IMG/VR virus record: IMGVR_UViG_3300028048_001169
Coordinates: 161,071 to 225,070 of that record
Strand: one strand, 5' to 3'
Origin: a virus
Lineage: Duplodnaviria; Caudoviricetes
Length of the DNA stretch: 64,000 bases
The translations under genes and the position numbers were made by a program. The notes beneath the pieces are model-generated. The model saw only the letters and a program-made list of their open reading frames with translations, was not told where the DNA came from and searched no databases. Position 1 is the first letter of the stretch; each line of letters opens with the position of its first letter. Shown here piece after piece: positions 9,594-64,000 of the stretch.

Positions 9594-9812
9594 ATGAAAA
9601 CCATTGCATGGATTGTACTAGCAGGTACAATATTAATCAATATAATTGTTCAGCTTATCTTATATCTAGTATTAGGTAGAAAGTTAAAGCAGAAAGAAGC
9701 ATTAACTATCAATATCGTTAAATGGTTATCATTCATTGGTACAATCGATATGCTCTTCTTTGTAGCTAGTTTAGTTATTCTGATTATGTATCAAGCTAAG
9801 GGGATTATGTAA
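9594..9812 (+). CDS. Small two-TM membrane protein
   Basis: Two hydrophobic helices and a GGAG RBS. Confidence 0.65.
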   Translation: MKTIAWIVLAGTILINIIVQLILYLVLGRKLKQKEALTINIVKWLSFIGTIDMLFFVASLVILIMYQAKGIM

Positions 9813-11380
9813 TGCCTAAGATTATTATTCGCAATAGTTGTATTATGATTAGGGATTATGTGTTAGGAAGTTGTCCTCAATTGGAGCGCAACTTCATGGT
9901 ATATGATCCCATCAGACACACTAAAGATGTTCTAGGAATGTATTATAGTGCAAAAACATCTACTTTATATATTCCTAGAGGATTAGATATTCCATACATT
10001 AAGCATTGTCTTCATATACATGATCATGAAAATGAGCAACCTAGTAAGTTCAAAGAAACGGATTATATTGGTATGAAATATAAACCAAGAGATAAAGAAC
10101 AAGAGGAAGCTCTTAAGTTCATGATCGGTATTGGAGAACATGAGCAAAATCTATACGAACCTCAATTATCTGTAAATCTGAATACTGGTAAAGGAAAAAC
10201 ATATTGTAGTATTGCTACAATATCGTATATGAGAATTAAGAGTATTGTTATTACAGGTAGTATCACATTACTTCATCAGTGGGAACGTGATATTGAGGAG
10301 TATACACAGTTACGTAGAAAAGATATTCTATTTATCAATGGATCTGATATGATGAATATGATTTATCAAGGTAAATCAAAACGTGCAGAAGAAGCAAGTA
10401 TTTTCTTATGTACTCATGGTACTATACGTTCATATTGTGATACCAATGGTTGGAGTCGATTAAATACAATCTTTGAGAATTTAGGAATTGGTATGAAATT
10501 TATCGATGAAGCTCATACAAACTTTGTCAATATGCTGATGATTGATTTCTTCTCAAATGTATTTAAGACTTACTACGTAACAGCAACACCTGGACGATCT
10601 AGTCGACAAGAAGATAAGATTTATCAATTATCAATTAAGAATGTACCTGGTATTGATTTATTTGATGAGAATAAAGATCCTCATACAGATTATATTGCAA
10701 TGAAGTATAATTCTCATCCATCTGCATTGGTATTATCATCTTGTCGTAACAAGTATGGATTGGATCGTATGAAGTATGTAGATTTCATCACACAGAATGA
10801 ATATTTCTATCAGATGATGCGTATTGTCATGGAAATGTTTTTGAAGTGTGGAGGAAGAGGATTATTCTACGTTGGTACAAATGCTGGTATCGTAAGAGTG
10901 TATCATTGGATTTGTACGAATTATCCTCAGTTGTTAGGACTTGTTGGTATTTATACATCCATTATGTCTAAAGAGGATAAGTTAAAAGAACGAGAAAAGA
11001 AACTCATCTTATCTACTACAAAGTCTGCTGGTTTAGGTGAAGATATAAAAGGATTAAAAATGACTGTTGTATTAGCAGAGCCATTTAAATCCGAAGTATT
11101 GACAAGGCAGACTTTAGGACGTACAAGAGATGATAATACAATGTATATTGAGTTAGTAGATTTAGGATTCCGTAATATTAGATCCTTCTACTATAGTAAG
11201 TTACCAACACTCAATAAGTATGCAAAATCTGTATCAGATACAACTTTCGATCAATATGAATTATCCAATAGATCAAAGATACTAGAGGATAAACAGAATA
11301 AGAAACATTCACCATTTGTATTATATGATGAACGATTTTTTGATTATACGCAAAAGGAGAGTGAAGAAGATGAATCATAA
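9812..11380 (+). CDS. Superfamily 2 helicase (DEAH, UvsW/Rad25-like)
   Basis: TGKGKT, FIDEAH, TATPGRS, GEDIKGL and QTLGRTR motifs. Confidence 0.88.
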   Translation: MPKIIIRNSCIMIRDYVLGSCPQLERNFMVYDPIRHTKDVLGMYYSAKTSTLYIPRGLDIPYIKHCLHIHDHENEQPSKFKETDYIGMKYKPRDKEQEEALKFMIGIGEHEQNLYEPQLSVNLNTGKGKTYCSIATISYMRIKSIVITGSITLLHQWERDIEEYTQLRRKDILFINGSDMMNMIYQGKSKRAEEASIFLCTHGTIRSYCDTNGWSRLNTIFENLGIGMKFIDEAHTNFVNMLMIDFFSNVFKTYYVTATPGRSSRQEDKIYQLSIKNVPGIDLFDENKDPHTDYIAMKYNSHPSALVLSSCRNKYGLDRMKYVDFITQNEYFYQMMRIVMEMFLKCGGRGLFYVGTNAGIVRVYHWICTNYPQLLGLVGIYTSIMSKEDKLKEREKKLILSTTKSAGLGEDIKGLKMTVVLAEPFKSEVLTRQTLGRTRDDNTMYIELVDLGFRNIRSFYYSKLPTLNKYAKSVSDTTFDQYELSNRSKILEDKQNKKHSPFVLYDERFFDYTQKESEEDES

Positions 11381-11564
11381 TAATGAAGATCAGTCTGTTA
11401 GTCAACTTGAAAAGAAATATATTAAGAATAATAATATGTCTGGTCATGTTATTACAGAAGAGCAGGCAAAGATTCGAGAACAAGTGATCGAAGAAGCTAG
11501 TAAATCAAGATCAAACAATGATGATATTTTCTGGCAGAAGTATATGGATCAGCATGATTACTAA
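11370..11564 (+). CDS. Hypothetical protein
   Basis: ATG at 11370 after AAGGAG, overlapping the helicase stop. Confidence 0.5.
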   Translation: MNHNNEDQSVSQLEKKYIKNNNMSGHVITEEQAKIREQVIEEASKSRSNNDDIFWQKYMDQHDY

Positions 11565-11641
11565 GTAAATTAACTTCCTCATAGTATAATCTATATTATG
11601 GGGAGGTAAAATAATTATGGATAAGGAGAGATACATATATT

Positions 11642-12037
11642 ATGAACAATAAAGAGCGATTAGTTGCTAAAATTAAAGATGAACGATTTTCTAGATTTAG
11701 ATTTCCCAATAGAGAAGCAGGAACAATTTCATTCTATGCTAATTGTCTAGATGATACAATTGTGGATAGTGAAGATGAAACTATTAGCTCAGCTGATGCT
11801 ATTCGGGAACTTTGTAAGTTAACTGGTTCTTTTAATGAGGATAAAGCATTCTATAAAATCAAACCACAAGAAGGAACATCTTACAAATGTACGATGTATT
11901 TCAGATTAAGTACATCAGAAGAATGTAAGACTATTAGTTATATAGGAGTTGGACATACTCCAGAGGAATCACTGAGAGTAGCGAGATCTGTCTATGATTA
12001 TTACTATTATAAATATCTAAAAGAATATAGTAAGTAA
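11642..12037 (+). CDS. Hypothetical protein
   Basis: 131 aa ORF with an AAGGAG RBS. Confidence 0.65.
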   Translation: MNNKERLVAKIKDERFSRFRFPNREAGTISFYANCLDDTIVDSEDETISSADAIRELCKLTGSFNEDKAFYKIKPQEGTSYKCTMYFRLSTSEECKTISYIGVGHTPEESLRVARSVYDYYYYKYLKEYSK

Positions 12038-12071
12038 AAATAAGATATTTTAGAAAGATGATATAGATAAC

Positions 12072-12287
12072 ATGGAAGATATTAGAGTTATGACCGATAT
12101 TAGTAAGCTTATTAAGCGCAAAAACATGGCATATGATATTTTATCAGCTATTCGCAATATGAAGGCTAGAGGTTTTAACCTTCCTATTGTAACTGGTAAA
12201 AAGGCAGAGGAAGAAGAAAAGAGATTACGCCAAGAGATCATTACATGTAATGAACGTATAAAGATATTGACGGAGTATAACTGTTAA
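12072..12287 (+). CDS. Hypothetical protein
   Basis: 71 aa ORF with coiled-coil-like composition. Confidence 0.5.
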   Translation: MEDIRVMTDISKLIKRKNMAYDILSAIRNMKARGFNLPIVTGKKAEEEEKRLRQEIITCNERIKILTEYNC

Positions 12288-12339
12288 TAGTAATAAGCAA
12301 TAATGGACATATCTCGCTATTTCAAATATAAAATAAAGT

Positions 12340-12364
12340 CCCAGTAGGTATTGAGCCTACTGGG
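12340..12364. terminator. Bidirectional terminator (CCCAGTAG family)
   Basis: CCCAGTAGG/CCTACTGGG stem flanked by A-rich and T-rich tracts between convergent genes. Confidence 0.78.
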
Positions 12365-12378
12365 TTTCTTTATTTTTT

Positions 12379-14169
12379 CTAAAATACTGGATTTGTAATC
12401 TTCTTTTTATCATCATTAAGAATCTTAGTCAAGTTATAGAGACTCTGTACAACATCACCATCTACAACTCTCATATTCTTAGCACCAAATCCTATGAAGT
12501 TCTTTTTACTATTATGGAATTTATGTAATTCATCATTCGCTTCATCTGTAAATACACCTCTAATTACAACCTGGTCTCCATCATAATCTCCACCCATTCC
12601 CTTCAAATACAAATTTGACATATTGAGTGTATCAATGAAAGTATCAGATGTATCTTTTCCAATATCGCTATCAGAGAATTTAGGATAATATGGATAATAC
12701 TCATTCTCTACATACATTGGTTCTGTTTCATTGGTTGTTAATATATCAATACCTGTTGTGATTTGGTTTGTTCTAGTATCAACCGGGAAACGTGTAATCA
12801 ATACCATTTTATTTTTTGTAGCTCGTAATGCGGAAATATACAATACATCCAGCCAAGTTAAACGACGATTATAAATTGCCTCTGGATTATCTCCTTCATT
12901 ATAAGTACCTTTGAAGTTCATATAAGCTTTTGAACCATCTTCCAGTTCTACTTCAATTGGTACAAATCTATTATTATATCCATGAATGAAATGATTCATC
13001 TCGGAACGAATTTTATCATCAGAGAACTGTATCATTGGATCTTTAACAACACGATATTCTACTTTACCATTCTCCATAACAACTGGATATTGTTCTGTAC
13101 CTACAAATTCTGTTTCAAACCAACGTCTTACGTTAAACTGAACAAATGGAGCAAAACATGCAATCGCTGCTGATAATGGTACTAGAGAAGTATCAAAGTT
13201 AGCTCTCATATCTTTAGGGCTATTTGCTTTTAACTCTGGTGATGAGATTACTAATCGAGCAGCATAATCAGTTGTTTTTGATTGGTTTGCTCTTCTCAGA
13301 ATACCAAACTTACCAGTTACACCATAACCTTTTTCATCCTTCTTAATATTTGCATTATTTGTACCAGAGAACCAATCGTAAACCTGAAGTAATAGTTCCT
13401 GAGTTCTAAGATCTTGAGGACCACTCATATCGAAACCATATTCCTGTGTTGTTTTTACACCAACAGCAGATAGAATTAATTGCTGATATAACTTATTAAT
13501 CTTACCAACACCAACGGAACCTTTTTTAGAATTCTGATTGTTTGTATCACGATAGAATGGTGGGATAACTAAGAATTTATTTGTAAAGATTAAGTTACGG
13601 TTCTTCTCCAAGAAATCTAACTTAATATCTCTTCTCAAAGAAGCAGCACCCGTATCTCTGAAACGAATCTTAGAAATATTCTTCTTTAAGAATTCAATAC
13701 CTGTTTCTCCATTAGGATCTTTTACTAAGTATCCTTTACGATCCAAAGAATATTTATCTATCTTTGCAATAATATCTTTGATTCTTCTATCCAATTTGAA
13801 CCATGCTTTATAACAAACAGGATTCATAAAGTATTTGCCTAAATTAATATAAGCAAAGATAGAGGAACGATCCTTCTGTGTAGCACCAAAAATACGATAT
13901 GATAACAATCCGTCATCATTTGGTTCACCTGGACGGTTAAAGAAAATTGGATTGGTAACCTCTTGCCAATTATTTACTTTAATAAAACGATCAATATCTA
14001 ATACTTCTAATTTCAGATGATTAGTAATAGCAACAATATCTTTCTTTTCTGTAATTGCTGCATCATTCACCATGTCATTAACGTTCTCTATGATATCAAT
14101 AAGTTCTACTCCTTTAGATTCCATTAAATCAATAGCGTCTATAATATAAGAACGATCCATAAGTTTCAT
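12379..14169 (-). CDS. Split RNA polymerase beta' N-terminal/catalytic subunit, probably virion RNAP
   Basis: GLLSYRIFG, LVIPPFYR, GKFGILRRANQSKTTDYAARLVI, TRFP and the catalytic loop GGDYDGDQ. Confidence 0.92.
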   Translation of the reverse strand: MKLMDRSYIIDAIDLMESKGVELIDIIENVNDMVNDAAITEKKDIVAITNHLKLEVLDIDRFIKVNNWQEVTNPIFFNRPGEPNDDGLLSYRIFGATQKDRSSIFAYINLGKYFMNPVCYKAWFKLDRRIKDIIAKIDKYSLDRKGYLVKDPNGETGIEFLKKNISKIRFRDTGAASLRRDIKLDFLEKNRNLIFTNKFLVIPPFYRDTNNQNSKKGSVGVGKINKLYQQLILSAVGVKTTQEYGFDMSGPQDLRTQELLLQVYDWFSGTNNANIKKDEKGYGVTGKFGILRRANQSKTTDYAARLVISSPELKANSPKDMRANFDTSLVPLSAAIACFAPFVQFNVRRWFETEFVGTEQYPVVMENGKVEYRVVKDPMIQFSDDKIRSEMNHFIHGYNNRFVPIEVELEDGSKAYMNFKGTYNEGDNPEAIYNRRLTWLDVLYISALRATKNKMVLITRFPVDTRTNQITTGIDILTTNETEPMYVENEYYPYYPKFSDSDIGKDTSDTFIDTLNMSNLYLKGMGGDYDGDQVVIRGVFTDEANDELHKFHNSKKNFIGFGAKNMRVVDGDVVQSLYNLTKILNDDKKKITNPVF

Positions 14170-40356: not shown

Positions 40357-43300
40357 ATGGCTGATACAGAATTACTTATCAAAGCTTCGTATGGTTCCAA
40401 AGCCTCTACGTTAGCTGCTGCCGTTAATAACGGTACATTTAGAGTAACAGATACCGGTGAATTGTTTACTGATATCAATGATACTCGCGTTTCAGTTGGA
40501 AGTACTGTATACGATAAGACAGAGGAACAGATCAAAGCATTGGCTGTTGCTAATATCCTTCCAAAGATCTATGTATCTACAGATACGAATAAGCTCTTCT
40601 GGTACTCAACAGAGTTATCTAAGTGGGTTGTAGTCGGTGGAGACAGTGTTGATCATGCTGCAACTGCTGACAAAGCTACAGGTGATGAAGATGGTAATAG
40701 CATCAAGAGTACATATGAGACTAAGGCTGATGCTACAACCAAGAATAATAAGCTTGGTGAAGATATCGCATCTCTTAGGGCTTCTGTAGAAAAGATTAAT
40801 TCTTTCGAAATTAAGATCGCTGATACTGTAGCAAGTATGCCAGTTCCTGGTGCATCTAACGTTATGTACTTTGTACCTAACGACACCATCACAGGAAATT
40901 CCAATGTATACGATGAGTATATCTGGATTTCTGAGGCTACTGAGCAAGAACCTAACGCTGGTCATTATGAGAACATTGGTACTACTGAGGCTGCTCTTGG
41001 TAACTATTACACAAAGGCTGAAGTTGATGCTAAGATCGCTACATCTAGTGGTGATATTGCTACTGAGAGATCTGAGCGTGAAGCTGCAGATACAGCTCTT
41101 GGTGGACGTATCGATACACTGACAACTACTGTTGGTGATAATAAGACAGCTCTTGAGAATGCTGATACAGCACTCGGTGGACGTATCGATGCTGTTAACA
41201 CTGTCCTGAACGGTGATGGTACTGAGCAGAATCCTGGTCTTATCGCTAAGGAAGCTGCTGATGTTACTGCTCTTGGTGGACGTATTGATGCACTGACAAC
41301 TACTGTTACAAATAACAAGACTGCTGCTGATCAAACACAGACAGATCTCGATACACTCGAGGCTGATGTTGCTACGATCAATAGATTCAAGAAGGCTATT
41401 GTAGATCAGCTTCCAGATATTGCTGATGCTGATGAGTATACAATGTACTTTGTTCCTGAGAAGGGACTGGATGGAGCTACCAACAAATATGGTGAGTACA
41501 TCAAGGTTGATGCTCATGATATTACAGAGGTAGATCCTGAGACTGAGCAAGAAGTTACAACCACTATTCCAGTACACTTCGAGCGTATTGATTCTACAGT
41601 AGATTTCACCAACTACTACACAAAGGCTGAAGTTGATGCTATCAAGACTGCTCTCCAGGGCAATATTGGTACAAATGCTTCTGCTATCGAGACACTTACC
41701 AGTACAGTTAACTAGAATAGAACAGCTTTAGAGGCTGTTGATACTGGACTTGATAACCGTTTAAAGGCTGTTGAGAATGCTATTGGTGGTGAAGGTGGTG
41801 CCTCTATTGCTTCTCGTGTAGGAACTCTCGAGACAGCATTGAATGGTGATGGTACTGAGCAGAATCCTGGTTTGATTGCTAAAGAAGCTGCAGACGTTAC
41901 TGCTCTTGGTGGACGTATTGATGGTGTTAATACTGTTCTGAATGGTGATGGTACTGAGCAGAATCCTGGTGTCATTGCTAACGTTGCAGCTAATAAGACA
42001 GCTATCGAAGCTGTTGATGGTAAGGCTGATCAGATTAGAACAGATTTCGAAGCTGCCGATACAGCTCTTGATGGTCGCTTAGACACAGTTGAAGATGCTC
42101 TGAATAATGCTACTACAGGTCTTGCTGCTCGTGTTACAACAGCTGAGAGTGATATTGATGCTCTCGAGACAGCTGTAAATGGTGATGGAACTGAAGGATC
42201 AGGACTCGTTGCTAAGCAGGCTGCTGATGCTGCTGCTATCACTGCATTGACAACTACTGTTGCAAATAATAAGACTGCTTCTGATAATGCTGATACAGCT
42301 CTTTCTGGACGTCTTGATACTGTTGAGACAGCTCTTAACGGTGATGGAACAGAACAGAATCCAGGTATTATTGCTAAGGAAGCTGCTGATATTGCTACTG
42401 TTAATGCTGCTATTCAGGCACAGAAGACAGCTTATGAGGCTGCTGATACAGCACTCGGTGGACGTATTGATACACTTGTTCAAAGCATTGGCAATATCAA
42501 TCGTTTCGATATCAGGGTTCTTGATAGTAATGAAGGACTTCCAGAGAAGGGCGAAGTATACATTATCTACTTCGTACCTAATACCGGTGATGATAACAAT
42601 GGTAAGACTAAGTATATAGAATACATGTGGGTTGCTGATGTTGATCCTGAGACTCACGAAGACAATGGTTACTATGAGGAGATTGGTATTACAGAGGCTG
42701 ACCTTGACGAGTATTATACATCTGCTCAGGTTGATAACTTACTTAGCCCACTGACAGCATCTACAACAAAGCATGAGACAGCACTCTATGGTGATGGTAC
42801 TACAGCTAACCCTGGTTTAATCGCTAAGGAAACTGCAGATGTTACAACTCTTCAGGGTAATATCGATGGTGTATCTAATCGAGTAACAACTGTAGAGACA
42901 GCTCTCGGCTCATATCCTACAGAAGCAGGTACTAAGACAATTACCGAGCGACTTGCAAGCTTAGAGACTTCTGCTTCTGATACAACTGTTGCTAATCGTG
43001 TAACGAATCTTGAGACAGCTCTTAATGGTGATGGTACTGCTCAGAATCCTGGTCTTATTGCTAAGCAGGCTTCTGATGTTGCTACACTTGAAGCTGCAGA
43101 TACAGCTCTTGGTGGACGTATTGATGGTATTAACACTGTCCTGAATGGTGATGGTACTACAGCTAACCCTGGTTTAATTGCTAAAGAAGCTGCTGATGTT
43201 GCTGCTCTTAATACTCGTGTAACAGCTACAGAGACAGCATTGAATGGTGATGGAACAGAACAGAATCCGGGTATTATTGCTAAGGAAGCTGCAGACGTTA

Positions 43301-43593
43301 CAACTCTTCAGAGTAACATTGATGCTGTTGAAGACAAGATCGATGCTCACAGTTTCAACTATGCTGGATCTGATTCAGAGGGTGGAGCTGCTAACACTGT
43401 TAAGCAGTCTGTATCTAATACATCAGCAGATCAACATGTACTTCTTGCTTCTACAGACAATACAGGTGTAGAATATAGTGATAATATCAAGGTTAATGCT
43501 GCTAATGGTTCTATGATCCTAAATGCTATTAAGCTTGGCGATGCAACTATTACATTTGATGCTGCTACAGAATCTCTTGTATTCAATTTTTAA
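40357..43593 (+). CDS. Long repetitive tail/head fibre protein interrupted by one in-frame TAG (41713-41715)
   Basis: ORFs 40357..41715 and 41839..43593 are in the same frame, and the repeats (LNGDGTEQNPGLIAKEAADV, ADTALGGRID) continue across the TAG. Confidence 0.8.
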
Positions 43594-52309: not shown

Positions 52310-52912
52310 ATGGGCTATAAGAAATTTCGTCCAGCAAGAGGAACAAAATATGAATGGGAAACGATCAATCCTGTCTTAGTAGAAGGTGAATGGGTTGTTG
52401 AAGTTCCAGATTCAGGTGTTGGTACTGGACTTAGTAAGTTTAAGATTGGTGATGGAACTAACAAATATGTTGATCTTCCATATGCATTTGATGGTACTGC
52501 TGCTGCAAGTTTTAATGGTGGTAATGCTGTTAATTATAACTTACTTCAGTTACGTGGTACTAGTGCTGCTAACTGGAGACAGGTTAATCCAGTTTTAGCA
52601 CAAAATGAAATTGGTTACGACGAAACCAATAGATCGTTTAAGATCGGTGATGGTAGCACTCGTTGGAATGATTTATTTTATATCAAAGCAGATTCTTTTG
52701 TAGTAGAAGATTATGATTTTGGTGATATGGACGAGGAAGCCATTGAAGCAACAGAGGAAGATGTATTAGATAATTCTGGATATCCAGATAATATTTTGGA
52801 TAATAATACTTCTAGCGATACTCCATCTAATAATAATAACTCTTCCTCTGAGGGTAATAATACATCATCTACTCCTGAGAGTAATGATAATACCTCTACT
52901 GAGGGTAACTAA
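52310..52912 (+). CDS. Tandem Mtd_N/hyaluronidase-N-like domain protein
   Basis: Two copies of RGT..W...NPVL..GE......FKIGDG....DL.Y, plus YDFGDMD. Confidence 0.78.
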   Translation: MGYKKFRPARGTKYEWETINPVLVEGEWVVEVPDSGVGTGLSKFKIGDGTNKYVDLPYAFDGTAAASFNGGNAVNYNLLQLRGTSAANWRQVNPVLAQNEIGYDETNRSFKIGDGSTRWNDLFYIKADSFVVEDYDFGDMDEEAIEATEEDVLDNSGYPDNILDNNTSSDTPSNNNNSSSEGNNTSSTPESNDNTSTEGN

Positions 52913-53590: not shown

Positions 53591-54094
53591 ATGTCAAAGA
53601 TTTTTAAACCAAGAAGAGTTAAGTATTCATCTATAGCAGAAGGTGGATCTAAAGCTAATGTTGTATTAGCAAACGGTGAAACTGTATTTGTAATGCCAGA
53701 TACTGGAGCAGGTACAGGACTCGGTTCCATTATCATGGGTGATGGTACGACTGCTATTTCCAATCTTCCATATATGATTAACGGTAAGATATCAGAAAAT
53801 AAAATTGAAGTAGTAACCAACAGTAAAACTACCGCTAATGCAGCTTTAACTGATGTCATTAGTGAAAATACTTTAGGAACCGTTATAGGTGCCTTAAAGC
53901 AGGCATCTTCTCTGAATGCTTCCGCTGCTACAAATTTAAATAATGAAAGAAATACACTGCAGACCAAGTTGAATAGTGGACTCCAGCAGATTTATAATGC
54001 ATGTGTAGAAGCAGGGACAACTCCATCCAGCGCTTCTGTTAATGACATTAATGCTGCTTTGGAAGAAATATTTGGGGGGGGGGTACACGGCTGA
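53591..54094 (+). CDS. Receptor-binding protein 1, N-terminal Mtd_N/stalk part; frameshifted at G10
   Basis: Paralogous to the N-terminus of 55337..56590; terminates just after the G10 tract. Confidence 0.78.
   Translation: MSKIFKPRRVKYSSIAEGGSKANVVLANGETVFVMPDTGAGTGLGSIIMGDGTTAISNLPYMINGKISENKIEVVTNSKTTANAALTDVISENTLGTVIGALKQASSLNASAATNLNNERNTLQTKLNSGLQQIYNACVEAGTTPSSASVNDINAALEEIFGGGVHG
54074..54083 (+). repeat. Poly-G tract (G10) at a domain junction
   Basis: G9 or G12 would fuse EEIFGGG to YTAEQL in frame. Confidence 0.85.
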
Positions 54095-54815
54095 ACAGTT
54101 AAACACAAATAGTACTGGTACTAATAAATTACTGGCAACGTTCAATTCTTTATCAGATGCACAAGCATTTGTTGAAAAGTATATCAAGTCAAATGGTAAA
54201 TTTGATAAGAGTATACGTGTTGGTGATAAAATCCAGATCAATGATGGTACTTATAATAAAGAATGGATCATAGTAGGATTTAATACACAGAGCAGAGCTA
54301 CATCACAACCACATATTAGTTTAATTCCAACATATTCATTGGGTGATTATAAAATGAATAGCAGTGATACTAATAGTGGTGGATATGCTGGTTCAGCAGC
54401 ATTTACGACGTGTAATAGTATGGCGAATAACTTAGCAAGAGTATTAGGAGATTACTTATTAACTAGAAACGAATTACTTGGTAATTCTGGTTATTCATCA
54501 TACACAACAGCATCAAAATCAGTTAGAGTAAATCTGTTGAATGAAATTCAAGTATTCGGTAGTAGAACTTATTCTGTAGCTAGTGAAGATGGATACGACA
54601 CTACACAGTTACCTGGATTCAGATTAAATAAAGTATCTAAAACTATTACCTCGAACAATAATTGGTGGTGGCTGCGCTCTGCTGGTAGTGGCTACAGCCG
54701 CGACTTCTGCTATATCTACAACGGCAGTCCCTCCCACACCAGCGCCAACTACAACACCTTTGCTTTTCGCCCGCTTATTACGATTGGACGTCCTGAGAAC
54801 GGGGGGGTCCAGTAA
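54084..54815 (+). CDS. Receptor-binding protein 1, DUF6273-like (C-type lectin fold) domain, DGR-target-like
   Basis: WIIVGFN, NSGGYAGS and WWWLRSA...FRPLITIG; no RBS of its own. Confidence 0.75.
   Translation, partial: YTAEQLNTNSTGTNKLLATFNSLSDAQAFVEKYIKSNGKFDKSIRVGDKIQINDGTYNKEWIIVGFNTQSRATSQPHISLIPTYSLGDYKMNSSDTNSGGYAGSAAFTTCNSMANNLARVLGDYLLTRNELLGNSGYSSYTTASKSVRVNLLNEIQVFGSRTYSVASEDGYDTTQLPGFRLNKVSKTITSNNNWWWLRSAGSGYSRDFCYIYNGSPSHTSANYNTFAFRPLITIGRPENGGVQ
54663..54776 (+). other. DGR-like variable region VR1
   Basis: Of the 29 codons from after WLRSA up to the Arg of RP, 22 end in C and all end in a pyrimidine, unlike the rest of the genome. Confidence 0.65.
54801..54807 (+). repeat. 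Poly-G tract (G7) at a domain junction
   Basis: G8 would read ENGGGPVTQQFTFDALTGQ into the downstream domain. Confidence 0.85.
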
Positions 54816-55237
54816 CTCAGCAGTTCACGTTTGATGCATTGACTGGTCAAACTTCTAGTAAATTAACACGTTCACTTGATGTTTCATTAGCTGGTTATAC
54901 TCCTGTATCAGTGCAAGATGTAGAGTTTACTCCTGCAACTTCAGCATATTGCCATCCCACTGGTCCTTCTGAGAGAGTTGAAGATGCTTATGGCAATGAT
55001 GTTACAATATATGACACTGTTGGTGATCTAAATTCAGAGGAGTCTGCTTCTAGTATAAGTTTATCTAGTAATACGATTACTTATACATCACAAGGAGCTA
55101 AGCATAATACAGCACATTATGCAACATGGCATTATGGTCATAATAATCCCGGTAATACTTTTGGTTATAGTATATCTGACGATACTTATAACTATGGTAA
55201 ACGTGTTGTTTCAGTTACTTATCGTAAGAATTCATAA
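54808..55237 (+). CDS. Receptor-binding protein 1, C-terminal extension domain (in frame only with G8)
   Basis: Paralogous to 56557..57083 with conserved ends and a divergent middle; no RBS. Confidence 0.65.
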
Positions 55238-55279
55238 ATTCTATTGTTGTTTATATATCGTTTATATAGTAGTCTATTT
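55184..55279 (+). repeat. Direct repeat with about 57030..57125 (cassette duplication)
   Basis: Identical TYNYGKRVVSVTYRKNS coding end plus downstream sequence in both cassettes. Confidence 0.8.
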
Positions 55280-55336
55280 AGTCTATATATTCTCTATTTA
55301 GACTACTATTATCATTTTAAAAGAAAGGAAATCTTT

Positions 55337-56590
55337 ATGGCTAAGATTTTTAAACCAAGAAGAGTAAAAGCTTCTTCTATCGCACAAGGTGGCTCTAAAG
55401 CTAATGTTGTATTAGCAAATGGAGAAGTGGTTTTTGTAATGCCTTCTACTGGATCTGGTACTGGTATCGGTGGAATTATTATGGGAGATGGTAGAACAGC
55501 TATCTCTAATCTTCCATATATGATTAACGGTAATGTATCCGATGGTAAAGTTACTGTTACTACTGATATTAGTAATAATCCTATTAGTAATGTCGTATCA
55601 AATAAGACATTAGGAGATATTACAGGATCATTGAAGGCTAGTAGTATTAAGAATGCTACAACAATTAGTAATATTGATGTAACTTCATTAAGCAATGGCT
55701 TTAATGGTATTAATAGCATTGTAAATAAATTATCCGGATATGGTGCAACACCAGTGAATAATAGTCCTAGTGCTATATGTGATGCTATATTAACAGGTGC
55801 TGTTAAATGGGTAAGTGCAGATGTACTTAATAATGATTATACTAATGCTTATAATGATGATGGTAGGCTAATTGCAACATTTAGCAGTGTCAACGATACA
55901 AGAAATTTCATCAAATCCAACGTATCAACAAAAGGATTCAATGAAAAAGTTAAACCTGGTGATAAGATCCAAATCAATGATGGTACATATAATAAAGAAT
56001 GGATTATTGTAGGATTTAATACACAGAACAGAGCTACATCGCAGCCACATATTAGTTTAATTCCAACAGATTCGTTAGGTGATTTTGTAATGAATAGCAC
56101 TGCTACTAATAGTGGTGGATATGTTGGTTCAGAAGCATTTGCAATATGTAATAATATAGCTAATAACTTAGCAAGAGTATTAGGAGATTATCTGTTAACC
56201 AGGAATGAATTACTTGGTAATTCTGGATATCCATCATACACAACAACATCAAAATCAGTTAGAGTAAATCTGCTAAATGAAATGCAAATACGTGGTAGAA
56301 GAGAATACTCTGTAGATAGTGAAGATGGATACGATACCACACAATTGCCTGGTTTTATAATAAATTATAGATATAGACGTCCTTACGATCGCATTCTTTG
56401 TTGGCTGCGCTCTGCTTCGAAAGACAGCAACGACTCCTTCTGCATTGGCTACGACTATACTCTGTTATCCGTCAACGAAGCCAACAAAATCAAAAACATC
56501 GACACCTACGAAATTGGTTTTTGCCCGCTTATTACAATTGGTCTTCCGGGGGGGGGCAGCAGTAACAGCAACTCGACAGTTCACGTTTGA
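55337..56590 (+). CDS. Receptor-binding protein 2: Mtd_N + stalk + DUF6273-like domain
   Basis: Start at ATG 55337 after AAAGGA; long near-identity to RBP1; CWLRSA...FCPLITIG. Confidence 0.8.
   Translation: MAKIFKPRRVKASSIAQGGSKANVVLANGEVVFVMPSTGSGTGIGGIIMGDGRTAISNLPYMINGNVSDGKVTVTTDISNNPISNVVSNKTLGDITGSLKASSIKNATTISNIDVTSLSNGFNGINSIVNKLSGYGATPVNNSPSAICDAILTGAVKWVSADVLNNDYTNAYNDDGRLIATFSSVNDTRNFIKSNVSTKGFNEKVKPGDKIQINDGTYNKEWIIVGFNTQNRATSQPHISLIPTDSLGDFVMNSTATNSGGYVGSEAFAICNNIANNLARVLGDYLLTRNELLGNSGYPSYTTTSKSVRVNLLNEMQIRGRREYSVDSEDGYDTTQLPGFIINYRYRRPYDRILCWLRSASKDSNDSFCIGYDYTLLSVNEANKIKNIDTYEIGFCPLITIGLPGGGSSNSNSTVHV
56402..56530 (+). other. DGR-like variable region VR2
   Basis: Shares the anchors TGGCTGCGCTCTGCT, TTCTGC, GCCAAC and GCCCGCTT with VR1; 22 of 36 intervening codons are NNC. 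Confidence 0.6.
56548..56556 (+). repeat. Poly-G tract (G9) at a domain junction
   Basis: G8 or G11 would read LPGG(G)AAVTATRQFTFDELTGQ into the downstream domain. Confidence 0.85.
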
Positions 56591-57083
56591 TGAATTGACT
56601 GGTCAAACTTCTAGTAATTTAACACGTTCACTTGATGTTTCATTCGCTGGTTATACTCCTGTATCTGTAGAAGATGTAGAGTTTACCCCTGCAACTGCAA
56701 GTTATTATACCCCAAACTACAACAACGACGGCTACACCCATGAATACAGTAGGTATAGATATACATGTATACCAGTAGAATATCCTAATAGAGGCGATTA
56801 TTCTTATAATCATTGTTTTGAAGGATACGTTATAATTGATCATAGCATCTCTACTGAGAATGCTCGTAATCTGATTATATCTGGTAATACGATTACTTAT
56901 GAAACAGATGGAGCTGCACATAATACAGAAAGAATGTCAGGAGATTGTTATCCAGTTATTGATGTAGATGGATATAGTAATGTATCTGTTGACGCTAGAG
57001 CTACAAATCGTCATATTATATCTGGTTCTACTTATAACTATGGTAAACGTGTTGTTTCAGTTACTTATCGTAAGAATTCATAA
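56557..57083 (+). CDS. Receptor-binding protein 2, C-terminal extension domain (in frame only with G8/G11)
   Basis: Paralog of 54808..55237. Confidence 0.65.
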
Positions 57084-57320: not shown

Positions 57321-57551
57321 TTAAACTATATAATCGACTAATAAGTCCTTAATTTGATTAATCCGACCTTCATCTTCTGTATGAATGATCAATTCCAATG
57401 GTTCTGCTAAATTTAAAGAAAAAATTCCTAAAATAGACTTTGCATTGACAATATATCTACCACCCTTAATGTCTATATCTTCCTCAATATTGTCAACGAT
57501 TTTTGTAAACTTATTAACTTTATTTACACTATTTAATAACACATATGTCAT
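57321..57551 (-). CDS. HPr-family phosphocarrier-like protein lacking His15
   Basis: VNAKSILGIFSL (Ser46 motif), no GLHARP; AAGGAGG RBS; late motif at 57581-57592 (-). Confidence 0.82.
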   Translation of the reverse strand: MTYVLLNSVNKVNKFTKIVDNIEEDIDIKGGRYIVNAKSILGIFSLNLAEPLELIIHTEDEGRINQIKDLLVDYIV

Positions 57552-57682: not shown

Positions 57683-58489
57683 ATGACAGAAATGGAACTG
57701 AGAAAGAAATATGTATCAACTATTAAGTCTTGGCATGGACGTAAAGAGTCCAATGGTACACATAAGCCAATTATTGATATCTATAATAACGATAAACCAT
57801 TACCAAGATCTTATAAAGTAAAGTATACTGATTCTTGGTGTGCAACAACGGTATCAGCAGCTGCTATTAAGGCAGAGAAGGAAACTGGTATTAAGTTTAC
57901 ATCAATTATTCCTAAGGAATGCTCTTGTAATTATCAGATTCACTTATTCCAGAAATTAGGACGTTGGGAAGAAAGAGATTCCTATGTACCTCAGATTGGT
58001 GATATTATCTATTATGACTGGAATGATAACGGTGTAGGTGATGATAAAGGATCATCTGAACACGTTGGTGTTGTAATCGAGGTTACATCTACTCATATTA
58101 AAGTAGAAGAAGGTAACAAGTCTGATGCTGTTGGTACTAGAACCATTGCGATTAATGGTCGATATATTCGAGGATTTGGTAAGCCAAATTATAAGAGTCT
58201 TGCTACTTCTAGTAAAAAGAAAGATGATTCTAAGGATAAAAAGAAATCAGATCCTAAGAAGAAAGAAATTACAAAGAAGACTCCTAAGAAGGGTGATAAG
58301 ATTGTCTTAAAGAATGCGTCTCTTTATAAGGCATCTACCTCTACAAAGGCGTCTGATCATATTACTGGAACTTATTATTTCTGGGACGCTAAAAACTACA
58401 ATGGTAAAACCCGCATAACAACATCTCCTAAATATGTGGGTAATACAAAGCAGATTACTGGCTGGATTTCAGCTGTTCATTTAAAGTAG
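57683..58489 (+). CDS. CHAP-domain endolysin/peptidoglycan hydrolase with C-terminal SH3-like domain
   Basis: WCATTVS (Cys), GDIIYYDW, HVGVV (His) and EEGN; Lys-rich linker; late motifs at 57610-57621 and 57638-57649. Confidence 0.85.
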   Translation: MTEMELRKKYVSTIKSWHGRKESNGTHKPIIDIYNNDKPLPRSYKVKYTDSWCATTVSAAAIKAEKETGIKFTSIIPKECSCNYQIHLFQKLGRWEERDSYVPQIGDIIYYDWNDNGVGDDKGSSEHVGVVIEVTSTHIKVEEGNKSDAVGTRTIAINGRYIRGFGKPNYKSLATSSKKKDDSKDKKKSDPKKKEITKKTPKKGDKIVLKNASLYKASTSTKASDHITGTYYFWDAKNYNGKTRITTSPKYVGNTKQITGWISAVHLK

Positions 58490-63036: not shown

Positions 63037-64000
63037 GTATCGTAAAGTTAAGTTCAGCGATGACAAGCATTGGTAAAGTGATGCTCTCTATTGTATCGGT
63101 ATAGTGGAGCGCCGTAATGTGAAGGTTTTGTCCTGTTTCGTAAAGTATTGGTGAAGTAACGTGTGGTTTTGCTATGGTATGGTACGGTGGAGTTTTGTAT
63201 AGTAGTGTCACGGTAAAGCTATGTACTGCAATGGTAAAGTATAGTATGGTCTTGTATAGGTGGAGTAACGTGGGGTTGTGCTTTGTCATGGTATCGTGCA
63301 GTAACGTAGTGCTATGGTAGAGTGTAGTAACGTCAAGTTATGGTATGGTTGAGTGTTGTTAAGGTAAAGTCAAGCATCGTTATGGTATAGTAACGTAATG
63401 CTGTGTCACGGTAAAGTATGGTAAAGTGCGGTATTGGTGAAGTGGAGTGATGTTTTGTTTTGTTATGGTAAAGTAAAGTTGTTTATTGTAATGGTATGGT
63501 AAAGTTAAGCACTGTTTTGTTGGGTTATGGTGGAGTAACGTGGGGTTGTGCTTAGTCATGGTATAGTGCGGTAATGTAGCGTTATGGTAGAGCGATGTAA
63601 ATTCTTGATTTGCAATGTTATGGTATAGTAACGTATTGTATCGGTAAAGTCGTGTGTCGTATTGCTATGGTATGGTGCAGTATGGTGCAGTACTGTATTG
63701 TGTTGTACAGTAATGGTAAAGTATTGTGGTGTAACGTGTAGTTGTGCTATGGTCTAGCGAAGCAGCGTATAGTAATGCAACGGTAAGGTATGGTTAATTG
63801 TTGTAATGGTAGAGCACTGTGAAGTGATGATTTGTATTGGCATTGTATAGTCGAGTGAAGTGATGTGAAGCTTTGTTATGGTATAGTAACGTATTGTATC
63901 GGTAAAGTCGTGTGTCGTATTGCTATGGTATGGTGCAGTATGGTGCAGTACTGTATTGTGTTGTACAGTAATGGTAAAGTATTGTGGTGTAACGTGTAGT
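63037..64000 (+). repeat. Non-coding G(T/C)NNN pentamer array punctuated by single Gs (runs off the window end)
   Basis: 186 pentamers + 32 single-G spacers + 2 nt = 964 nt exactly; 179 of 186 pentamers begin GT or GC. Confidence 0.92.

Follow-up and report, generated by a model that had tools for sequence, protein, structure and literature searches.

Are the receptor-binding tips encoded by two neighbouring fibre genes of a large tailed phage still being rewritten by a diversity-generating retroelement (DGR), or are they what such an element left behind? The question is raised by genes A and B, two paralogues on the plus strand of a 64,000-nucleotide stretch (hereafter, the window) that makes up the final 64 kb of the IMG/VR contig IMGVR_UViG_3300028048_001169. 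This contig is 225,070 bp long, has 33% GC and was rated 92% complete by CheckV. Each gene carries a variable region (VR; VR1 in gene A and VR2 in gene B) like those of DGR targets, and runs of G stand at the joints between the encoded domains. The original prediction, made from the letters of the window, had noted that neither a reverse transcriptase (RT) nor a template repeat (TR) lay nearby and had proposed that a DGR located elsewhere in the phage or its host acted on both regions. On balance, and with modest confidence, we favour a different view, namely that VR1 and VR2 are orphan (fossil) DGR products within modular fibre genes that bear poly-G switches at their joints. They are called orphan because no RT, accessory protein Avd or TR was found on the phage contig.

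The two regions stand out by their codons. VR1 with both anchors occupies positions 54669-54781 (variable core, 54683-54767) and VR2 with its anchors 56402-56535 (core, 56416-56522), both on the plus strand, and a recount from the sequence reproduced exactly the predicted numbers of codons ending in C (NNC), 22 of 29 and 22 of 36. The corresponding fractions of 76% and 61% compare with 8-17% elsewhere in the same genes, and sliding counts over 25 codons reached 21 in VR1 and 17 in VR2, the scaffold typically giving 1-3. With gene-wide NNC fractions of 0.17 (VR1 gene) and 0.14 (VR2 gene), the binomial probabilities are about 1e-11 and 1e-10. As predicted, identical anchors surround both regions: TGGCTGCGCTCTGC (54669 for VR1, 56402 for VR2) and GCCCGCTTATTAC (54769 and 56523, respectively). 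The upstream scaffolds, which had been described as near-identical, are so over their central 300 nt (89% identity), but 32% of the amino acids differ overall.

VR1 belongs to what is here termed class 1, and VR2 forms a class of its own. The latter is 21 nt (7 codons) longer and, in agreement with the suggestion that different templates were involved, cannot share the template of VR1. Its core could not be aligned with class 1, its codons include AAA three times and GAA twice, its A content is 34%, and the flank upstream of it has been replaced too; the ortholog P0002 bears a class-1 VR in its place. The AAA and GAA codons, the A content, the 7-codon insertion and the replaced flank indicate either that VR2 was written from another template or that it is older and drifting. 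That VR2 could be an unmutated, template-like copy was considered and set aside: its A fraction (0.34) is near that of a TR (0.31), but this is indistinguishable from drift to the 37% A of the background.

The domain that carries VR1, encoded at 54084-54815 (plus strand), was identified as a DUF6273 receptor-binding domain with a C-type-lectin fold from Pfam (PF19789), an AlphaFold2 (AF2) model and VIA-align. Gene A exceeded the Pfam cut-off (25.4 bits against 23.5, E 1.5e-5; 25.9 bits in the six-frame search); gene B alone remained below it, and is 61% identical to gene A across that domain. The AF2 model, obtained from a 65-sequence alignment, had a predicted local distance difference test score (pLDDT) of 94.7, and VR1 fell on strands 194-235 of its 243 residues, that is, on the last strands and loops. 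A sequence profile search of solved structures with the lectin domain found nothing and Foldseek on its own was weak, so that the fold assignment is that of VIA-align, which matched the model to the N-domain of the T. ramosa IgA peptidase (Z 14), a Bacteroides fimbrial protein (7.5), the C-terminal domain of Legionella Lcl (7.2), the DGR variable protein TvpA (6.3) and about 40 C-type lectin domains (Z 4.6-5.8). This is a large family (987 representatives in the library at E<=1e-3), and most of the C-termini among the members listed are VR-like.

Published work places DUF6273 among the domains that DGRs target, the VR being C-terminal in it (PMC11792537, PMC10743442). Genes A and B share the Pfam domain and the C-type-lectin fold with the targets of the Faecalibacterium phages Lelie, Roos and Pioen (PMC11792537) and with the tentaclins and target2 proteins (PMC10743442). 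In these gut Firmicutes phages, as here, a surface beta-hairpin with loops at the C-terminal end of DUF6273 bears the VR, the targets are phage receptor-binding proteins and several of them occur per genome. However, those phages carry RT, Avd and TR beside their targets, and none of the three was found in the 225 kb analysed here; moreover, the hairpin that follows the VR is absent here, and the genes run on through a poly-G tract to a further module. Similarly, the Bordetella phage BPP-1 protein Mtd, the prototype DGR target, is a tail-fibre protein with a C-terminal VR of AAC-derived codons in a C-type-lectin fold, and an Mtd_N-like N-terminal motif occurs in the present cluster, where the gene at 52310-52912 matches Pfam Mtd_N as well as many tail-fibre PHROGs. 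The lectin-domain sequences of the two systems, however, show no detectable homology, Mtd is missing from the structural matches listed (in which TvpA and Lcl are present), and BPP-1 has a complete cassette with an initiation of mutagenic homing (IMH) sequence and a hairpin.

More direct evidence on authorship came from relatives. Two of them, L001 and L005 (30-35% identity), possess complete target-Avd-TR-RT cassettes in which the VR lies at the homologous position. In L001 the target extends over 9782-10705, Avd over 10720-11307, the TR over 11321-11417 and the RT over 11513-12748, and its 97-nt VR/TR pair is 80% identical, with differences seen only at template adenines. The cassette of L005 has the same order, and its VR and TR likewise differ only at template adenines. 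When the class-1 homologues were compared (metagenomic sequences P0002-P0009 and P0014-P0016), 24 of 27 VR columns varied (89%) against 78 of 171 in the scaffold (46%), and residue states that NNC codons cannot encode (K, E, Q, M and W) made up 2 of 88 in the VR and 26 of 197 in the scaffold (Fisher p 0.004). In the large-phage relatives L006-L009, the counterpart of this region is invariant, mostly NNT-coded, and contains K and W, which speaks for loss of the element.

Paralogues gave a concordant picture. The related locus L003, an 18-kb piece of the 21.9-kb contig Ga0256405_10005462 (33% GC), carries the gene of P0004, which is 74% identical to gene A and 65% to gene B, followed by two more paralogues with NNC-rich tips. 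Between gene A and the L003 VRa paralogue, codon positions 1-2 differed at a frequency of 0.43 and position 3 at 0.15 within the VR, the scaffold values being 0.14 and 0.34; between L003 paralogues b and c, the figures were 0.37 and 0.13 in the VR and 0.21 and 0.32 in the scaffold. This inversion between VR and scaffold (p 3e-6 and 0.009 for positions 1-2, and 0.048 and 0.033 for position 3, in the first and second pair, respectively) is as produced by rewriting from a common AAC-rich template. The NNC codons, the variation at positions 1-2 with a conserved position 3 and the NNC-limited residues are proxies for adenine mutagenesis, and VR2, with its AAA and GAA, fits them less well. Thus, writing by a DGR has good support in VR1 and is plausible in VR2, and the NNC signature, the fold and the homologous true DGR targets bear out the claim that DGR-type variable regions are present in receptor-binding domains of this type.

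No DGR was found to go with them. In the 225-kb contig, a six-frame search for the RT domain PF00078 gave nothing at E<=1, tblastn with the RTs of L001, L005 and the jumbo phage G003 (see below) returned only chance matches (E>=0.2), and a scan for RT-like motifs was negative as well. Avd was equally missing, both as PF05635 (none at E<=1) and by tblastn with the Avd of L001 and of G003. There was no second copy of VR1 or VR2 in the genome by blastn-short and no AAC-rich template-like stretch in scans for period-3 C and AAC density, which are noisy in that antisense frames of acidic genes score high. Hence, the absence of RT and TR that had been noted in the vicinity holds for the whole contig, and the BLASTn of the VRs and the RT/Avd search that the original prediction had proposed as checks were both negative there. 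Scans with the anchor pattern yielded no template in IMG/VR (0 matches) and none among 185,579 species-representative GTDB genomes, where the seven matches comprised two in low-GC sequences (L011 and L016) that proved to be unrelated coding DNA and five in high-GC sequences that were taken as chance, unread. L001 and L005 display a GC hairpin about 25 nt past the VR, with a CTTGT loop and stems of 9 and 7 bp (z -2.4 and -6.0, respectively); such a hairpin, an element that is not universal among DGRs, was found at none of VR1, VR2 and L003 VRa-c (z about 0).

A comparable phage illustrates how this situation can arise. G003 (IMGVR_UViG_3300021256_001754) is a distantly related, 249,585-bp jumbo phage rated 100% complete, whose RNA polymerase beta subunit is 47% identical to that of the present phage, and it has no match to RVT_1. 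The tip of its homologous lectin gene has about 56% NNC codons against 7% elsewhere, and directly downstream of this gene (positions 1187-1839 of L023, G003:C1:143273-143925) lies a DGR remnant of which Avd residues 15-102 (E 3e-28) and the stretch 340-404 of the RT (E 2e-18) are all that is left. This fits one deletion of roughly 1.5 kb that took the TR and the catalytic domain. Since G003 keeps a deletion-killed DGR beside a homologous gene, orphan VRs resulting from DGR decay are documented in comparable phages. Both are jumbo phages with split multisubunit RNA polymerase genes, a homologous NNC-tipped lectin gene and no working RT; the differences are that G003 keeps a scar (half of Avd and the last ~65 residues of the RT), of which the window shows none, and that it has no poly-G tracts at its lectin gene.

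L003, in turn, may bear on the part of the genome that the contig lacks. A 244,118-bp contig carries P0004 along with P0001 and P0009, and the 18 kb of L003, with its three VR genes, contained no RT, Avd or TR when these were sought. A 94-nt stretch at L003 15967-16059 is 91% identical to positions 140204-140297 of the genome and lies outside any common gene; it may be a common regulatory element and hints, as a likeness of sequence, that L003 stems from the same phage lineage. That L003 directly abuts the start of the genome through its 706-aa open reading frame (ORF) was considered and discarded: the genome starts inside a different gene, encoding an AAA+ ATPase of ~450-520 aa, and the 3' end of L003 has none of the GGTA repeats found at the end of the window. 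The 706-aa ORF had no match among GenBank phages.

The second peculiarity of these genes is the way in which their modules are joined. Gene A, as assembled, consists of three frames parted by runs of ten and seven G. The N-terminal module (53591-54094, plus strand), a fibre anchor with a GDG.T.ISNLPY motif (repeat family D4) shared by the four plus-strand genes that start at 52310, 53171, 53591 and 55337, reaches a stop 8 codons past the G10 run; then comes the lectin domain, and then a C-terminal module (54797-55237, plus strand), an all-beta domain of 146 aa whose frame opens across the G7 run. Gene B encodes anchor and lectin domain in one frame (55337-56590, plus strand) that ends just past a G9 run, followed by a 178-aa C-terminal module (56547-57083, plus strand) homologous to that of gene A. 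Identity between these two C-terminal modules is 47%; their ends are strongly conserved, their centre varies, and neither has a start codon or ribosome-binding site of its own, their frames opening across the G tracts. No family was found for them in Pfam, PHROG or atlas searches, and the AF2 model, all beta but of low confidence (pLDDT 51.5), was too poor for a fold search.

In all three tracts, frame arithmetic from the sequence places the assembled length one base away from a fused frame. Tract 1 (G10, 54074-54083) marks the joint of the gene A anchor and lectin domain, where G9 or G12 would fuse the frames. At tract 2 (G7, 54801-54807), G8 would bring lectin domain and C-terminal module into one frame, and G6 or G9 would give a short end (...SSNSAVHV). 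At tract 3 (G9, 56548-56556), a length of G8 or G11 would join gene B with its C-terminal module in the same way. All three, on the plus strand, encode a Gly linker at a domain joint. The homologue P0003, in which the anchor module is joined in frame to the lectin domain, reads across joint 1 (EEIF-RGG-YTAEQL); at joints 2 and 3, no fused form, i.e. no longer homologue with lectin domain and C-terminal module in one chain, was found in the protein database. The poly-G had been placed about 20 nt downstream of each VR; the distance is 20 nt for VR1 and 13 nt for VR2, and the G10 run had gone unmentioned. Across the 225 kb there are only three G runs of at least 6 (7, 9 and 10 long), all inside 2.5 kb, and no C run of at least 6. 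Runs of at least 5 are depleted (12 observed and 39 expected for G, and 1 and 13 for C), GGG makes up 1.9% of the Gly codons, and the number of G runs of at least 9 expected by chance is ~0.03-0.05. The poly-G tracts are thus likely to act as contingency switches, as far as their frames and placement tell, and we infer that real slippage occurs at them.

It is known that phages have contingency loci, T-even phages included (bioRxiv 10.1101/2025.10.21.683753), and hypermutable poly-G tracts are described for Campylobacter Fletchervirus phages (Sorensen et al. 2021, Cell Rep 35:109214, as cited in bioRxiv 10.1101/2025.10.21.683753); in coliphage tail fibres, such repeats are under-represented (bioRxiv 10.1101/2025.10.21.683753). 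What is shared with these loci is that G homopolymers lie inside structural or receptor-binding genes and are able to switch the frame. Here, however, the phage group and the host are others, the tracts stand at domain joints of genes with DGR-type VRs, and the switching is deduced from sequence. A further role that had been suggested for the G tract, that of a homing (IMH) signal, was rejected: tract 1 is away from the VRs, in the canonical relatives there is a hairpin but no G tract, and the conserved 3' end of the VR, TTCGCCCG, is already the same as the boundary between TR and VR in L005. Two other large AT-rich phage contigs likewise have a single G7 run a few kb away from their lectin genes (L002, 15810; L008, 6568).

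Taken together, these data can be accommodated in the following scheme. Genes A and B would be paralogues in an AR9-like jumbo phage, both of them modular tail-fibre (receptor-binding) genes that lead from a common N-terminal virion anchor through a DUF6273/C-type-lectin domain to an all-beta C-terminal module. The last beta-hairpin and the loops of the lectin domain would be the VR, written by DGR mutagenic retrohoming from AAC-rich templates, with the class of VR1 common to the L003 paralogue and the strain variants, and VR2 representing another class. The DGR would then have been lost by the lineage, or left behind when the module came by recombination from a DGR-bearing phage. At present, variation could draw on several paralogues with different frozen tips, on recombination among them, and on slipped-strand length changes at the three poly-G tracts, by which anchor, lectin and C-terminal modules would or would not form one chain. 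Recombination of this kind is what P0013 points to. This protein, from a separately recorded contig, equals gene B from residue ~55 on, VR2 included, and its first ~50 residues resemble the anchor type of gene A and P0003 (compare window 55337-55500 and 53591-53750); read from these sequences, it would be a chimaera that arose by recombination between paralogues inside the common N-terminal module.

Several observations weigh against this scheme and feed the alternatives to it. About 8% of the genome (~19 kb) is unsampled, and the 244,118-bp contig bears these genes plus P0004. The NNC bias of VR1 is undiminished, being at least that of an active VR (about 54% in L005), and this strong bias, together with the fact that the VRs of the strain variants P0004-7, P0015 and P0016 differ at ~10% scaffold divergence, argues that writing was recent or may still go on. 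No RT or Avd remnant lies beside genes A or B, no fused lectin and C-terminal-module protein came up in the database search, and the homopolymer length of an assembly can be a consensus or an error. VR2 holds AAA and GAA codons and K and E residues and cannot be aligned to any known template, and variation in the P0004 clade is confined to the 5' half of the VR, unlike the 3'-biased pattern of partial retrohoming. The last two points would suit an origin of the tips without any DGR, by ordinary diversifying selection on a binding loop or as a patch from a GC-richer donor, but we think this scarcely probable: selection leaves unexplained both the invariant third-position C in a genome of 33% GC and the exclusion of K, E, Q, M and W, the segment lies where homologous bona fide DGR targets have their VR, and most of the C-termini listed for the family are VR-like. 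The homopolymers, for their part, could be misread, in that the frameshifts might be assembly or sequencing artefacts, or else sites of ribosomal or transcriptional slippage and not heritable DNA switches. Homopolymers are error-prone, all three tracts are exactly one base from the fused frame and the protein database held no fused long form, which makes this a serious if doubtful alternative. The tracts themselves, however, are no artefact, because they are the only three in a 225-kb genome that avoids G and C runs and all of them fall at domain joints; in addition, two gene calls, on the 225,070-bp and 244,118-bp contigs, imply the same G10.

It is unlikely, in our opinion, that an active DGR sits in the unsampled ~8% or in a strain-variable cassette and hits these genes remotely in cis. 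The CheckV value, the 244,118-bp contig with P0001, P0009 and P0004, the very strong NNC bias, the VR differences among closely related strains and the position-3 homogeneity between paralogues, which suggests rewriting after duplication, would all agree with it. Nevertheless, RT, Avd and TR are all absent from the 18 kb of L003, which carries P0004 and probably covers a large part of the missing stretch; all five targets would be remote and need at least three templates; the hairpin past the VR is missing; and P0004 and P0016 have an identical VR despite 9% scaffold divergence, VR2 of P0013 being identical as well. Targeting in trans, in which the VRs would be rewritten during infection by a DGR belonging to the host or to a co-resident prophage, seems to us distinctly improbable. 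In the Bordetella phage system the TR-RNA/RT complex is diffusible, the TR of prophage L001, once translated, agrees with the framework of the G003 VR at nearly all positions other than Asn, and the 3' end of the VR is the TR/VR boundary of L005. Against this, no TR with the anchors of the window came up in IMG/VR or among the seven GTDB matches described above, the cis hairpin is missing, the nucleotides of the G003 VR and the L001 TR differ at many non-adenine positions, and three VR classes would need three helper templates. An extended form of this idea, a two-tier diversification of host range in which RT-less jumbo phages borrow the mutator, their VRs being rewritten in trans by host prophage DGRs while poly-G switching of modules acts faster, appears more improbable still. 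The remote or trans targeting put forward in the original prediction therefore finds little in its favour: neither the contig nor L003 has RT, Avd or TR, no template was found in IMG/VR or GTDB, the hairpin is gone and the DGR of G003, in a phage rated complete, was killed by deletion. These same findings favour, but do not prove, the outcome that the prediction itself had named as its refutation, i.e. that the VRs are fossil or horizontally acquired segments, and we infer that the DGR was lost and not merely missed by incomplete sampling.

If orphan tips of this kind are what we believe them to be, they would escape notice for a simple reason: DGR surveys start from the reverse transcriptase, so that VRs left after DGR loss go uncounted. 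The contig has two orphan-VR genes and the related locus L003, perhaps of the same genome, three more, in three VR classes, and G003 carries a deletion-killed cassette. This suggests that jumbo phages inherit receptor-binding tips diversified by a DGR and lose the mutator afterwards; that the only three poly-G tracts all fall at these joints suggests a different, cheaper switch for fibre variation. Were reads to confirm the switching, phage contingency loci would extend beyond Campylobacter phages and T-even coliphages, and this phage would be a natural case for asking what replaces a lost DGR.

Some further features of the locus and its surroundings were recorded. In the variable centre of the gene B C-terminal module there is a short A/C-rich patch (56709-56747) of mostly NNC codons (ACC CCA AAC TAC AAC AAC GAC GGC TAC ACC), which shares the 9-mer AACTACAAC with VR1 and for which blastn-short found no second copy in the genome. 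Directly past the fibre genes lie a small HPr-like ORF on the minus strand (57321-57551), whose Pfam match is weak and falls short of the cut-off, and, on the plus strand, a CHAP-domain lysin (57683-58489). Elsewhere, the window contains several split genes for RNA polymerase beta subunits, helicases and a tape-measure-like protein, and, at 40357-43593, two adjoining genes made of many diverged tandem and dispersed repeats of 33-123 nt (families D1, D6, D7, D9 and D11), which probably encode coiled-coil or fibre shaft repeats. The final ~1 kb of the contig (window 63040-64000) is non-coding and strongly C-poor (8-9% C, 30% G), and it is dense in GGTA and ATGGTA motifs, with 30 GGTA per 1 kb and no TACC. 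Imperfect direct repeats occur near this end (e.g. 63575-63742 and 63833-64000, 88% identical), and the assembly stops within this GGTA-rich region, a candidate origin, packaging region or terminal region.

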